Shown: piece after piece, positions 9,278 through 25,994 of the stretch
Layout of the letters: every line of letters begins with the position of its first letter
Numbering within the stretch: position 1 is the first letter of the stretch
Source: a virus
Reading direction: 5' to 3' (one strand)
DNA length: 64,000 bases
IMG/VR virus record: IMGVR_UViG_3300035182_000466
Coordinates: 1 to 64,000 of that record
Notes under the pieces: model-generated
Told to the model about the DNA's origin: nothing
What the model saw: the letters and a program-made list of their open reading frames with translations, nothing else
Database searches by the model: none
Translations under genes and position numbers: made by a program

Positions 9278-9285
9278 AAATTACA
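9278..9285 (-). promoter_or_regulatory. Recurrent TGTAATTT putative phage promoter element
   Basis: The same 8-mer lies upstream of ORFs at 13116-13123(-) and 22420-22427(-) and of the ncRNA at 23823-23830(+). Confidence 0.5.
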
Positions 9286-21265: not shown

Positions 21266-22372
21266 CTACCTTTCTAATAGTTTCAATTTTTTTAGTATTG
21301 TCTGAGTTTCTATATTTTGTATTAATCGACCTTGTACTGATGTCTTTATTAAGACGTCTTGAAAAGGTCCTTCATAAAAAGGTTGTATATCAAATACCAT
21401 CCACATCCTTTCCCAGGATGGGACATATACAATATCATTAACCTGAGGATTACTTATAACTGGCGGTAATTCAATGGTTATTGATTGAAGATTAAAAAAG
21501 CTAGTATAGTCTTTACTTATAGAAAACTGAGGAAAGTTAGCATGTATATCTATACCGAAGTCAAACTCTAAAAAGACATGAGTAAAAACGTCTTCTCGTA
21601 CTTGAATTTCTAAGGTAGTTCCTTTAGAAATATTAATCCATTCTTGAGTAAGTCTTTCTCCATGAATGTATAGATATGCATCTAATGGTGTAACATTATT
21701 ATAAATCCTATATCTCATTTTAGAGAAAAACTTAGGAACCTTTATATCAAAAGCAACATAGCTATTATCTATCTTCTTTTCAAATGAATTAGGAAAGCTA
21801 GTTTGATTTATCATGTATCCTTCATAAGAAGAAACTGTATGAGTAGTCAAGCTATAAAACTGTGATCCTATTGGTTGTAATAATGGTGTAAAGCCTGTTC
21901 TAAAACATATACCACAATCAACACCCTTATGAAATAAATTAGGAAATAAAGGATTTGGTGAAGCAGAGGATTCAGTAGTTTCATCCGAATCATCTAGTAA
22001 ATAATCCTCTTCATGCATCACCGAGTTTAATGGTTCTGTTGGCATTGTTCCAAACAATGGACTTTTTAACAAAGTTGAAAATGTAACTTCTGTAGGGCTA
22101 GCCTTTGGACTTACGTCAGAGTATTCTTTAAGATCAGGAGAAACTTCATAATTCAAAGAAGGTTGTTCTTCAGGTTTATTCATAGCATGGCAGGTACAAG
22201 TATACCCATTCTTTATCTGCTGATAGTAAAGAATAGGAGGACTATCTACTAGAAAAGAATTTTGCTGAAAATTTTGCCTAGCTTTCTGCAACTCATCCCT
22301 TCTTTGATCTGCGTATTTACCAATAAAGTTTTTAGCCATTATTGGATTTTTAGCGGACAGTCTTTGTACCAT
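21266..22372 (-). CDS. Probable neck/head-closure-like structural protein
   Basis: CTC...CGICFRTGF zinc motif and C-terminal NDIVYVPSWERMWMV beta strands; first gene of the minus block. Confidence 0.45.
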   Translation of the reverse strand: MVQRLSAKNPIMAKNFIGKYADQRRDELQKARQNFQQNSFLVDSPPILYYQQIKNGYTCTCHAMNKPEEQPSLNYEVSPDLKEYSDVSPKASPTEVTFSTLLKSPLFGTMPTEPLNSVMHEEDYLLDDSDETTESSASPNPLFPNLFHKGVDCGICFRTGFTPLLQPIGSQFYSLTTHTVSSYEGYMINQTSFPNSFEKKIDNSYVAFDIKVPKFFSKMRYRIYNNVTPLDAYLYIHGERLTQEWINISKGTTLEIQVREDVFTHVFLEFDFGIDIHANFPQFSISKDYTSFFNLQSITIELPPVISNPQVNDIVYVPSWERMWMVFDIQPFYEGPFQDVLIKTSVQGRLIQNIETQTILKKLKLLER

Positions 22373-22546
22373 ATTAATTTCCTCATAATACTTATGTGAT
22401 AATTTAAATATCTTATTTTAAATTACATAGATTTTAACTTCATAACCACAAAATACCTCATTTTCATATAATTTATATTATTATATAATTTAAATATATG
22501 ATAAGTAGTAACTGTAAATAATAATAGAGGAATAATAGAGGTAGTT

Positions 22547-23221
22547 ATGCTCATATTGTCAGATGATCCAGCAACACGGAATTATGGAAGATCCTTGATT
22601 GAAGTAGATGATAATATAAAAAATGATAAGTTGCGCTTTAAAATAAAGAAAGCGTGGCTAGTAAAGAGTACTATACTTAATACAGATGTCAAAGGTGACA
22701 TCTCAAAGATTTTAGCTAAGTTTTCAAAAAATGCAAGAAAAACATATAGAAAATATGGATTTAATTATTATGCGGCTGAGAGATTCATGCCTAGAGGTGG
22801 GGCTGGAACTGTTCAAGGCTGTGAAGTCATAGCTATGATGCTATGTCTGAATGTAAGAGCATTTAAAACCGCTGAAAGTAGGCTTTTACCTGCGGTTGTA
22901 TGGAAAACACAGATAAAAAGGTATTATGACTTAAAAGATTTATATAAACAGATAAAACCATGTCCTGATCACTTATTAGATGCAACTTTAATAGGATTAT
23001 ACACGGTATATTCACGGTTAAAAATAAAGCCATTTTCGACTTTAGATAAGAAGGATATAAAGTACATAATAACTAGGCTAAAGTCAATAGGTACAAGGAT
23101 AAAGGTAAAAGAAGATGAAAGTAAAAGACTTGAAAGGGAAGCTAGAAAAGAAGAAAAGAAAAAGACTTCTACTCCTAGAACAGTTAAGAACAAGAAAAAT
23201 AGAATCAAGCGAAGGTCTTGA
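22547..23221 (+). CDS. ruvC: RuvC-like Holliday junction resolvase
   Basis: ILSDDPATRNYG (first Asp), AAERF (Glu), DHLLDA (two Asp); basic C-terminal tail. Confidence 0.75.
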   Translation: MLILSDDPATRNYGRSLIEVDDNIKNDKLRFKIKKAWLVKSTILNTDVKGDISKILAKFSKNARKTYRKYGFNYYAAERFMPRGGAGTVQGCEVIAMMLCLNVRAFKTAESRLLPAVVWKTQIKRYYDLKDLYKQIKPCPDHLLDATLIGLYTVYSRLKIKPFSTLDKKDIKYIITRLKSIGTRIKVKEDESKRLEREARKEEKKKTSTPRTVKNKKNRIKRRS

Positions 23222-23810
23222 TAAGTTAAAGACCTTAGAAAGTGAAATACTCAGTTTAATCAAGAAAATAGAGGAAAAACCATTCGATGAATACGAAGTT
23301 ACAGATAAATCTATATCAGAAGAACGTGAGATATTACTTCAGGATTTTATGGAAAGTGTAGAAGCTAAAATTATGGTAATACGTCAATTATATGGTGTAG
23401 ATGAACCAGAGGCTTCAAAAAGAGAACTTACGGAACTGTTAGGCTTAATCAATGAGAACATAAAAATTCAAGGAGATGAGATTAATAGATTATCTAAAGT
23501 ACACAAAGATTATAATGATCATAAAGATATATCTGTTGGTAAATCGTTATTAAAATCTACATCTTCATCTACATCAAAAAAGATATATGTAAAAAGAAGA
23601 AGTAAGGAAAAATCTGAAATAGATAAATGGAATGATAAACTAGATAAACTAATATTATTAGAAAGTAAAAAAGAAAAAAGAGCGTTAGAACAAAAAGAAA
23701 AAATGGAAGCAAAGAGAATTTTTCGTAGGAAAAAGGAAAATTTTCAAAAAATATCAGGTAGTTATGTTAAGAAAAAAAATAATAAAAAATCCATAGAAAT
23801 GCCGTTTTGA
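23115..23810 (+). CDS. Lys/Glu-rich helical hypothetical protein
   Basis: 231-aa ORF overlapping the RuvC-like gene's 3' end; very basic termini. Confidence 0.6.
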   Translation: MKVKDLKGKLEKKKRKRLLLLEQLRTRKIESSEGLDKLKTLESEILSLIKKIEEKPFDEYEVTDKSISEEREILLQDFMESVEAKIMVIRQLYGVDEPEASKRELTELLGLINENIKIQGDEINRLSKVHKDYNDHKDISVGKSLLKSTSSSTSKKIYVKRRSKEKSEIDKWNDKLDKLILLESKKEKRALEQKEKMEAKRIFRRKKENFQKISGSYVKKKNNKKSIEMPF

Positions 23811-23910
23811 CAAGAAAATCTTTGTAATTTAAATATACATAAATGTAAATATATATGTGTGGTTATAATTTTTATAGTACAAACAATAATCCTATTGTTT
23901 TTAGTATAAA

Positions 23911-25203
23911 GATTATAACCCGGCACTGCGTTTCCACAAAGTGTACTTACACGGGAAACAACCATCACAAGAGATGGCGTCACCAGTGCACGTCGAGCCG
24001 ATAAAATGGTGGGCTGCGTTATTTGATTCAACAGGTGTGATTCTACCTGGAATAACGTAACGGGGAATCGAATCAAAAGATGAAGTCATAGAGTTGCTCC
24101 TGTTAAGACCATAGTCTCTTGCTGAAGATGAAGGCCATAGCAATGAATAGACCGTGAGGTCTTCCGAATAGATGGTTACTATTCGGCTATCACGATACAT
24201 TGTTCTTGAGCTCACAGGATGGGCCTCGACATGATATGGCGCAAGATGTAACCACTATGCTCTAATGCTGATAGTCCATGATAAGGATATGAAGGTTGGT
24301 AATCGAGGTTACTAAACAGGCAGAATTGTAATCATGGATATCGTACTACATGGCATGTATAACAGGATTGATGTAAGGTCGCATGTACCTATTATGGATA
24401 ACTATACTAACTTTGGCACTAGTTATATCTAGGACATGGACAAGATAAGTTTATATATTTCGAGAGAGTATATAGACAAAGTTATAGTCAGAACTACCAA
24501 AGTAGAGGGAGATACTCGCCACTAGGTAAACAGGATTTCTCGTCATATAAGACAATCAATCATTGCAATGACAAATAGAAATCTAAGCGTTTTAAGTGGG
24601 AACTGATAGGAATAGTATATCAGCAGGCTCCTGAAAATGGCCTATAACACCTACATCAGATATAATGACCTCTGCCTGTGGAGAGCTTACAGGTTCTGGA
24701 ATATGAAAGCAGAGTGACATCTGTGAAAGCGGACCAGACCGCAAGTCTACGTGAATGTTATTATCAAAGATCGCCGTTATATACGTTATGCCTGACAACT
24801 TAATGTATATAAATGTTGATATTCTTCTAGTCAAAGAGTATTAAAGGATCTGAGGTAATGTTAATCAGCGGACGTAGCCAACGTTTTGTTAAACGTTGAA
24901 CCTTTAAGAAGAGTCTCTTAAAGGCCGTAGTCAGGGATGGTAGCCCTGCCAATAATTTATACCATTTCCAGAAAGAAAGACCACCCGTCCTAGACCTAGG
25001 GAATTATCAATATTATCGTATGCAACTCCGATTTGATGCCTCGGGAGAGGTATCGGGTATTTGAAGGAGCGTTTTTATGCGAGTTCAAGTACTTGGCTGT
25101 AACGCTAGACCTGGAGGCCATAAGTTGATAATTCGAGGTAAAAACTCGATAAATTCCCTCAACCGAGGGGATTGTTCCGACCGGCTCTATCGGTATTATA
25201 ATC
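23911..25203 (+). ncRNA. Putative large (~1.3 kb) structured non-coding RNA, family unknown
   Basis: No credible ORF; GC visibly above the flanks; about 20 helices; several GNRA loops; G-U pairs that work only on the + strand; 5'/3' closing helix GATTATAA (23911-18) / TTATAATC (25196-203); TGTAATTT motif upstream. Confidence 0.75.
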
Positions 25204-25257
25204 CCATAGGCTTTCAAAACTTCCATAAAACTCCAAAATTCAAAAAAAGATTAGATA

Positions 25258-25645
25258 GCGTTGCGAAGCAACGCAAAGCTAAACGAAGTTTAGATTTAAT
25301 TAAAACGTACACAACATTAGGTAAGATACAATAGATGTTGGTTTATATCGTATCGGCTTTATATAGTATCGGCTTTAGATCTTTTCAGGTTTTAAGCACC
25401 TCCTCAGCTTATCCGTACCGGCTAATCTCATCCAATCTTTACCAAACCCAAAGATCCTACCAAAACGAAGTAATTCCTATCTATGTTATTCTATATCTGA
25501 CCTCAATAGTTTTAAAATTCTTATTCTTGTTGTCTAAAGCCAACAAGGGCTTGAGCTTACGCTCCAGCATCTGCTCTTTAAGAGCATTAAAGTCAAAACC
25601 TTGCACTCGTTGGCGCAGCGCAGCGCAGCGCAGCTCGGCGCCACT
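25258..25645. repeat. Cluster of DNA hairpins and short repeats (origin/terminus-like)
   Basis: GCGTTGC-GAA-GCAACGC (25258-74), CTAAAC-GAA-GTTTAG (25279-93), GTATCGGCTTTA twice (25350, 25366), and (GCGCA)4 inside TGGCGC/GCGCCA (25611-43). Confidence 0.55.
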
Positions 25646-25742
25646 TCAAGAGTTTTGCATTTTTTATACGTCATCTAGATAACGAATTATATAATTTATA
25701 ATATAATAATGTTATTGTTTATAATGTAATGGAGGTAAATAT

Positions 25743-25994
25743 ATGGCAATAGTTCAGCCCGTTAAACTTGTATATGATGAACATGGAGAAGTTATAGCTA
25801 TCTCTGAAATGGTTCCTGGTGATATGATTCAAAAATCATACTTAACTCAAGGTATGGACGTAGACGGAGGATCTATGACTGATAACTTTAGATCCCTTGA
25901 TGAAAATGTGGATGGTGGAGTATTTTCAGATGCATATGCGTCAGATGACGTAGTCTTTGATTCAGGGCCATTAAATAATGGACTTCAGCAATAA
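25743..25994 (+). CDS. Small acidic protein with repeated VDGG motifs
   Basis: GGAGG RBS; two VDGG motifs plus FDSG. Confidence 0.7.
   Translation: MAIVQPVKLVYDEHGEVIAISEMVPGDMIQKSYLTQGMDVDGGSMTDNFRSLDENVDGGVFSDAYASDDVVFDSGPLNNGLQQ

Follow-up and report, generated by a model that had tools for sequence, protein, structure and literature searches.

The window analysed here spans positions 1 to 64,000 of the 170-kb IMG/VR virus record IMGVR_UViG_3300035182_000466, which, being estimated as 63% complete, belongs to a jumbo phage. Our results show that a gene-free island in this window holds a real folded non-coding RNA (ncRNA) on the + strand. Its conserved core (24729-25182) is, as judged from sequence comparison, an enlarged and divergent homologue of the EGFOA RNA (RF02955) that has lost the P1 hairpin, expanded P3 and added H0, A/B, H1 and E, and the locus is not a new RNA class. 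The original prediction, made from the letters of the window, had placed a ~1.3-kb structured RNA with no open reading frame (ORF) at 23911-25203 and could not assign it to a family. The structured + strand RNA is borne out by helices that covary in six lineages and by G-U pairs that become A-C on the other strand, and the core now finds its place as a divergent EGFOA relative. The explanation we favour, at a probability of roughly 0.55, is a rightward jumbo-phage ncRNA in which this EGFOA-like core would end one long transcript with a variable 5' domain and would act in trans by self-association.

Assignment to EGFOA was not obvious from Rfam. At the gathering score the 64-kb window gave zero matches, and at a relaxed threshold the best match was EGFOA at 24962-25132 (29.4 bits, E 0.006; 22.1 bits in the whole-record search), short of the gathering cut-off of 37.7 bits, which the syntenic lineage L045 also missed (30.1 bits); canonical members score 57-70 bits. 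GOLLD, ROOL, OLE, group I/II introns, RNase P and tmRNA, the families for which the original prediction had proposed an Rfam search, gave no gathering-score match in the 64-kb window and stayed unmatched up to E 10 within 23700-25500, which leaves the sub-threshold EGFOA match as the outcome of that search. Matches to miRNA and snoRNA in the relaxed search were noise, and ARAGORN found no tRNA or tmRNA. In the alignment of the EGFOA model to the window, P1 is deleted and a 79-nt insert stands in place of a short hairpin; cmscan aligned P1 as a deletion in L045 too, and P1 has left no trace after CUAG in 6/6 lineages, where 0-5 unpaired bases separate CUAGA and GGG. The two single-stranded blocks of the family, CCGUcCUAG and GUAAAGCUAGACCUgGG, are carried by the window as CCCGUCCUAGA (24984-94) and GUAACGCUAGACCUGGA (25099-25115) and are present in 6/6 lineages, with a compensated variant in L045. 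P2 encloses P3 and P4, P4 is capped by a 17-nt loop, and the 5' tail forms with this loop the double pseudoknot of EGFOA, which was read from the consensus, the Rfam model being without it. With a covariance model built from L055 alone, the scores were 38.6 bits (E 1e-5) for the window and 53 bits for L054, and a model built from three lineages matched 6/6 lineages as well as the canonical EGFOA RNAs L020, L002 and L040.

A scan of IMG/VR with the 16-nt loop pattern returned 42 loci, of which 5 were true EGFOA and the others chance matches within genes; a scan with the window-specific 16-mer gave a single match, also by chance. All five canonical RNAs are located in gene-free gaps, ~230-300 nt before the 3' end of the gap; three contigs span the gap completely, and there it measures 0.9-1.4 kb. 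At four canonical loci (L002:784-923, L040:122-261, L020:9095-9234 and L032:8568-8707(-)) a stable hairpin stands 36-60 nt past the end of the Rfam model, with GGGG in its 3' strand (GGG in L040), recalling the E hairpin described below. Natural canonical EGFOA RNAs may extend past the 108 catalogued positions.

DNA homologues of the island were found neither in the phage GenBank collection nor by an IMG/VR search with a flanking protein. For the flanking proteins of 198 and 368 amino acids (aa), relatives with 47-71% identity were found on contigs as long as 295 kb, and synteny identified six lineages in which a gene-free gap of 1.5-3 kb lies between a resolvase-like gene and a gene of 77-83 aa (Table 1). 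These gaps have no reading frame and almost no sequence in common, and nhmmer and blastn comparisons of the window element with the relatives' gaps gave no match besides the core motifs. What the gaps do share is a colinear series of short motifs, namely GTAATTTA, located 88-130 nt after the upstream gene (23823 in the window), AAGUCUACG (24743), CGUAGCC (24873), a CAGA tail (24969), CCCGUxCUAGA (24984), GUAAAGCUAGACCUG (25099) and, last, the hairpin AAUUCCC...GGGGAUU (25151-25174) followed by UUG..ACC. The sub-threshold EGFOA matches of the window and L045 fall at the syntenic spot. Among near-identical strains of the window (at least 99.4%), the core has 0 changes, and all changes in the RNA, three substitutions (23978, 23993, 24254) and one 1-nt insertion (+A at 24572), are in the 5' domain. 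Contigs nearly identical to the window occur in IMG samples 3300035180, 3300035181, 3300035661, 3300036715 and 3300037010.

Hidden coding was looked for and rejected. No ORF of at least 60 aa fills 23811-25334 with table 11, table 4, TAG=Q or TAA=Q, none of the alternative codes opens a long frame, the short ORFs of this stretch matched no Pfam family, and a six-frame comparison of the gaps from six lineages found no shared peptides. The ORF-free stretch of ~1.3 kb first described is actually longer, since non-coding sequence begins at 23811 and continues up to 25743, where the conserved 83-aa gene lies, and its GC content, read by eye as ~40% and above that of the flanks, is 0.413 for 23921-25182 compared with 0.329 for the 170-kb record.

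The core, ~455 nt long, is composed of H0, a long-range A/B helix (CUACG/CGUAG), H1, the EGFOA-type double pseudoknot and the terminal hairpin E. Two 5' strands of the pseudoknot, CCAG and GU-CUAG (referred to as PKa and PKb), dock into the 17-nt P4 loop and are clamped by P2. MAFFT alignments of the core left the helices out of register; covariance-model alignment and anchor-based extraction were used instead, with core strands taken at fixed offsets from the invariant CCGU and GACCUG. In an alignment of nine sequences (the six lineages and three canonical EGFOA members), 93.8% of the cells of P2, P4 and PKb are paired, compared with 64.2% after partners were shuffled and 32-42% after they were slid, and 13 of the 17 pairs are altered on both sides, a result that 0/500 shuffles equalled. 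Changes on both sides reach 7/7 modelled P2 pairs and 4/4 modelled P4 pairs, with 90-97% of cells paired, the P2 and P4 counts being taken from an alignment fitted to the model. PKb was not fitted, and forms 6/6 pairs in 6/6 lineages; L045 replaces CUAG/CUAG with CGUG/CACG by two double changes, and the bulged base is variable (C, A or G). A test of P2 only, on windows, was weak alone, 6-bp helices being common in AT-rich windows.

PKa, the A/B helix, H1 and E covary too. PKa makes 5/5 pairs in 6/6 lineages, with C-G, U-A or A-U as its fourth pair and U-A, C-G or U-G as its fifth. Compensatory changes convert a G-C pair of the A/B helix to U-A in L048 and a U-A pair to C-G in L045. H1 stems of 5-8 bp have unrelated sequences among lineages, the one in L054 being weaker and interrupted, and P4 keeps 4-5 pairs in five lineages with all positions varying, the best register in L046 being a shifted one. 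In the E hairpin 88.9% of cells are paired (76% in shuffles), several of them as U-G, and the covariation score of 0.50 against 0.23 was reached by 0/500 shuffles. The search for covariation among homologues that the original prediction had proposed is thus answered in favour of the core helices. Spacing between the CCGU block and the loop is 56-66 nt in L045, L054 and L055 and 123-198 nt in the window, L048 and L046. The hairpins equivalent to 25135-25149 look terminator-like in L054 and L045.

Table 1. Features of the ncRNA locus in the window, and gene-free gaps at the syntenic place in related lineages
Feature	Position	Strand	Remarks
Promoter-like block (TTGACA 23807-12, TGTAATTTA 23823-31)	23807-23840	+	GTAATTT/TAATTTA at equivalent place in relatives
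28-bp imperfect inverted repeat, 5' hairpin of transcript or DNA-level repeat	23861-23920	+	arms 23861-88 / 23893-920, 89% complementary
Lineage-specific 5' domain, ORF-free, ~41% GC	23921-24728	+	no sequence shared with any of the distant lineages; local z ~0
H0 hairpin (GCGG/CCGC)	24729-24742	+	directly 5' of motif A in 6/6 lineages, sequences differ
Motif A (AAGUCUACGU), 5' strand of A/B helix	24743-24752	+	5-6 bp with 24872-24877 in 6/6 lineages
Variable insert inside A/B helix, includes earlier-noted 12-bp helix 24777-24812	24753-24871	+	17-121 nt across lineages
Motif B (ACGUAGCC), 3' strand of A/B helix	24872-24879	+	pairs with motif A
H1 hairpin (CAACGUUU/AAACGUUG)	24879-24898	+	same start base after GCC in 6/6 lineages
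Peripheral hairpins H2 (24901-24924) and H3 (24932-24948)	24901-24948	+	hairpin number and sequence lineage-variable
PKa 5' strand UCCAG	24967-24971	+	pairs with CUGGA 25111-25115
CCCGUCCUAGA block with PKb strand GU-CUAG 24987-24993 (C24989 bulged)	24984-24994	+	pairs with CUAGAC 25105-25110
P2 5' strand	25001-25011	+	11 bp with 25124-25134
Expanded P3 region, includes earlier-noted GGGA-capped helix 25031-58	25012-25093	+	69-79-nt insert compared with 11-14 model positions
P4 (25094-98 with 25116-20), capped by 17-nt loop GUAACGCUAGACCUGGA	25094-25120	+	loop near-invariant in all lineages and canonical EGFOA
P2 3' strand	25124-25134	+	pairs with 25001-25011
Small variable hairpin (CGAG/CUCG)	25135-25149	+	one or two hairpins here in every lineage
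E hairpin (AAUUCCCUC/GAGGGGAUU, 25152-25173) and conserved UUG..ACC tail	25151-25182	+	9-10 bp in 5/6 lineages, 5 bp in L048
L045			gap 2.4 kb
L046			gap 3.1 kb
58-kb contig (3' pieces are L048-50)			gap 1.5 kb
L054			gap at least 1.6 kb
L055			gap at least 1.0 kb

Folding was compared with dinucleotide shuffles, on halves of the element and on sliding 240-nt windows. The folding energy of 23911-25203 is lower on the + strand (-378.8 kcal/mol) than on the - strand (-340.5 kcal/mol), in agreement with the strand preference first proposed. The 3' half (24561-25203) has z-scores of -5.0 (+) and -2.8 (-), and the 5' half of -1.8 (+) and -1.6 (-). The 240-nt windows are clearly negative only at 23720-24079 (z -4.5, -5.9) and mostly so at 24680-25399 (-2.0 to -3.9); across 23960-24799 they stay at z ~0 (+1.1 to -1.1). 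The strong values at 23720-24079 are explained by the 28-bp inverted repeat at 23861-23920, which is equally stable on both strands and has no counterpart in the relatives. All 22 helix strands quoted in the original prediction were located where it had put them, at most 1 nt off, but helices over nearly the whole length are not in themselves a signal, given that the central ~700 nt fold no better than shuffles; its expectation of folding beyond shuffles held for the 28-bp hairpin and the 3' third and failed in the centre (~23960-24680). In the core region the energy-minimum fold recovers H1 (8/8 pairs), H2 (9/9), P2 and E and misses H0, the A/B helix and P4. Cross-lineage comparison supports the A/B helix and P4, both outside that fold. 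The conserved fold is therefore partly unlike what energy minimisation or inspection by eye would predict.

That 23911-25203 is one giant closed base-paired RNA of a new family, with its ends joined by long-range helices, was the reading first given to the element, and it now appears unlikely. It is consistent with the ORF-free and GC-rich character of the region, with the existence of every listed helix and with an energy-minimum fold of exactly 23911-25203 that joins both ends; moreover, the 5' domain is structured in a related pair (see below), and that of the window may be likewise. However, in 5/5 lineages tested the two ends are no more complementary to each other than in shuffles (z -0.4 to +1.3), which leaves long-range closing helices and a single closed 1.3-kb architecture without support. 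One of those helices paired GATTATAA with TTATAATC near 25196, and would have to compete with the local 28-bp hairpin, which is the stronger one once upstream sequence is counted and within which GATTATAA falls. The central windows at z ~0, a 5' length of 350-1630 nt with no sequence in common and a core that is a member of a known family also speak against this reading.

The sequence between promoter motif and core is the least conserved part of the locus. Motif A follows the promoter motif by 920 nt in the window, by 350 nt in L055, by 660 nt in L054, by ~1265 nt in L045 and by 1630 nt in L046; for the L048 lineage, gene coordinates of the 58-kb contig give an estimate of ~360 nt. The absence of shared sequence, the low z-scores and the chance-level end pairing would, taken alone, describe filler, but comparison with a seventh contig, L065, argues against this. 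L065 can be aligned to L054, and the columns of their 5' domains are on average 73% identical, long invariant blocks alternating with divergent stretches. The aligned domains are L054:873-1496(-) and L065:1-558(-), and one invariant block lies around GUGAGACUG.AACGUCACGAUGAAGACAGCAG. For these two sequences the consensus fold reaches -60.5 kcal/mol, compared with -23.2 +/- 3.8 in 60 column shuffles, and contains 20 compensatory pairs, compared with 10.3 +/- 3.1 in shuffles (maximum 18). Therefore, at least one lineage has a 5' domain that is structured RNA under constraint; the L054/L065 domain has no detectable homologue in the window. The GC content of the relatives' gaps is 0.39-0.43 (flanks 0.40-0.43), and the window element has 0.41 in a genome of 0.33; this steady composition suggests that it is constrained across the RNA.

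These observations also bear on whether only the EGFOA-like core (~170-455 nt) is functional, with a start of its own, and the 0.9 kb upstream consists of other small RNAs, a regulatory spacer or neutral filler. We consider this doubtful. The lack of conserved sequence and length in the 5' part between distant lineages, the z ~0 of the centre, the confinement of strain substitutions and the 1-nt indel to the 5' part, and the cataloguing of canonical EGFOA as a small RNA of ~108 nt are all as expected under it. On the other hand, neither a promoter motif nor an above-chance sigma-70-like site was found just upstream of 24729, the GC content stays at ~0.39-0.43 across the relatives' gaps and the window element whatever the GC of the genome, the L054 and L065 domains keep their structure through compensatory changes, and at least 350 nt are kept between promoter and core in every lineage. 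It is plausible that the primary transcript is long and carries a 5' domain that is structured and evolves fast. A bolder version, to which we give only tentative credit, is that the whole transcript of ~1.3-1.45 kb (up to ~2.3 kb in L046) is a single functional RNA, in which the EGFOA-type 3' core would be the conserved assembly or anchoring module and the 5' kilobase a structured domain diversifying fast under arms-race turnover, for example as a decoy or sponge for host factors. If so, it would be among the largest phage ncRNAs, and the catalogued EGFOA 'small RNAs' would be pieces of much longer RNAs. A search for repeat or decoy arrays in the 5' domain of the window found none.

The start of the putative transcript is marked by a promoter-like motif, whose presence upstream of the element the original prediction had pointed out, and which recurs 33-57 nt before several protein genes. 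GTAATTT/TAATTTA stands 88-130 nt after the upstream gene in all 5 lineages whose gap start is covered, and a 19-nt block of the window (23815-23833) is 95% identical (18/19) to a block 47 nt upstream of the leftward 368-aa gene (22417-22435 (-)). The TATGTAATTTA-type motif lies 33-57 nt upstream of at least 5 ORFs of the 170-kb record, on both strands, and is a candidate phage promoter class; the bare 9-mer shows no statistical enrichment. Further copies were seen at 9285(-) and 13123(-) and at record positions 73977(+) and 122164(+). Late expression, as first suggested, is not established, since the motif also precedes leftward, non-structural genes.

Orientation and position raise the question of whether the island is a cis-acting leader of the rightward virion operon, either as an RNA that modifies RNA polymerase for antitermination, like HK022 put, or as a processing or stability element, in place of a trans-acting RNA. 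The island has the orientation of >38 kb of co-directional genes downstream, no terminator-like site was found between 23823 and the 83-aa gene at 25743, and every lineage keeps the island at the head of its fibre-gene block. Against a leader stands a second copy of the promoter motif, in variant form, just before the 77-83-aa gene in five lineages, which probably gives the operon a start of its own; between the core and that second copy there are ~600 nt of further non-coding sequence, and Rfam searches gave no resemblance to put RNA. A role of this kind seems quite unlikely to us.

As for the surroundings of the island, leftward genes stop at 22372 and rightward genes start at 22547 with the Holliday-junction-resolvase-like gene. 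Between this gene and the RNA promoter there is a lysine-rich ORF of 231 aa (23115-23810), found only in the lineage of the window and without a family match, that is probably a real gene because strains differ in it by an in-frame 12-nt indel (insertion at 23560). The rightward genes from 25743 are the 83-aa gene, a 198-aa gene with an Mtd_N domain and a 1227-aa collagen-like fibre gene, followed by >30 kb of rightward genes. Mtd_N domains in neighbouring genes led us to consider a template of a diversity-generating retroelement, which was rejected: the 170-kb record, 63% complete, has no RVT_1 match, and repeats of the island elsewhere in the record are chance-level matches of 19-30 nt only.

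In a comparison of the window with the strain contig L056, 27 substitutions and one indel are concentrated within 22091-23602 (1.5 kb, ~1.8%), against a divergence of ~0.2% in the following 3.4 kb. The pattern resembles that of a recombined patch covering the resolvase gene, the lysine-rich gene and the 5' end of the 368-aa gene. Between the RNA core and the next promoter motif lie ~540 nt of further non-coding DNA (25204-25742), with C-GAA-G hairpins at 25258-25274 and 25279-25294, a tandem 16-nt repeat at 25342-25373 and a GCGCA run. GAA-loop hairpins of the AAACGAAGU type were seen again in L045 and L046, and the EGFOA loop is followed by the next promoter motif at a similar spacing in all lineages (588-840 nt). 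A 25-nt direct repeat, 80% identical, lies near both ends of the non-coding island (23885-23909 and 25705-25729), each copy 3' of a promoter-like motif.

With such neighbours, the island could be thought of as a DNA-level element, such as an origin of replication, a packaging site or a hotspot of recombination, with hairpins that function in single-stranded DNA rather than in RNA. It sits between divergent/early genes and the late block, beside the resolvase gene, the adjoining 25204-25742 has mini-hairpins and short tandem repeats, and the 28-bp inverted repeat is symmetrical on both strands. However, the core pseudoknots, the G-U pairs and the strand asymmetry fit RNA, the homologous EGFOA fold was solved as RNA, and 23921-25182 contains no iterons, which together make a DNA element very improbable.

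Under the explanation that we favour, one primary transcript of ~1.3-1.45 kb would start near 23823, at the TGTAATTTA-type promoter. Over the first ~0.9 kb it would be a fast-evolving, lineage-specific domain and not a conserved part of one closed fold, and the core would most likely act in trans, as a self-associating RNA module during infection, by analogy with the trimers and strand-swapped dimers that EGFOA RNAs form in vitro; the 5' domain may then be variable cargo or decoration on the core. Several points weigh against this view. A 5' length that varies almost five-fold fits unrelated filler or separate small RNAs as well. The only relatives of the window's own 5' domain are strains at least 99.4% identical, its centre folds at shuffle level over the range given above, and the 5' domains of L054 and L055 reach z-scores of only -1.5 and -1.4. 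The structure test in the related pair compares two sequences, the P2 and P4 counts depend on a fitted alignment, the Rfam score does not reach the gathering cut-off and P1 is absent. The ends of the RNA, the strand used in vivo and its existence as one transcript are predicted from the sequence, and oligomerisation of the core is proposed by analogy.

Put RNAs are ~70 nt long, with two hairpins, and are not known to form a pseudoknot. The island resembles the HK022 put type as a structured RNA that heads a long phage operon in the same orientation, and differs from it in having no sequence or model match and in standing before an operon that appears to have its own promoter. The GOLLD and ROOL families are conserved along most of their length, whereas conservation here covers only about a third of the RNA. 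The present RNA is like them in being a large, GC-enriched ncRNA of phage or prophage, but no Rfam match to either was obtained up to E 10 and no motifs are shared. GOLLD and ROOL are large ornate RNAs shown by cryo-electron microscopy (cryo-EM) to form RNA-only multimers (bioRxiv 10.1101/2024.12.08.627333 / PMC12286853), and a multimer role is proposed here by analogy.

The closest comparison is with EGFOA itself, an RNA motif attributed to Weinberg et al. 2017 (PMC5737381) and located in unusually large intergenic regions; two of its RNAs have been solved by cryo-EM, as a trimer and a strand-swapped dimer (bioRxiv 10.64898/2026.07.01.735769). The locus described here shares with EGFOA two near-invariant blocks (CCGUxCUAG and GUAAAGCUAGACCUGG), the order of helices P2 and P4, a 5' tail complementary to the P4 loop (CCAG/CUGG, GUC-UAG/CUAGAC) and a place in unusually large gene-free phage regions. 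It differs in its score (29.4 bits, under the 37.7-bit cut-off), in the absence of P1 in 6/6 lineages, in a P3 that reaches at least ~80 nt in the window, L048 and L046, in conserved extras outside the 108-position model (H0, A/B and H1 upstream, E downstream) and in a core placed behind a lineage-specific 5' domain of 0.35-1.6 kb. The locus offers a construct for structural studies (24729-25182, compared with 108 nt), natural variants for covariation and a defined genomic context in which to seek the function of an orphan RNA family. In one jumbo-phage clade the EGFOA fold, which here loses P1 and tolerates large P3 insertions, is only the centre of a larger conserved core, and this core is the 3' end of a long promoter-to-core non-coding unit with a fixed place between the resolvase gene and the fibre genes.

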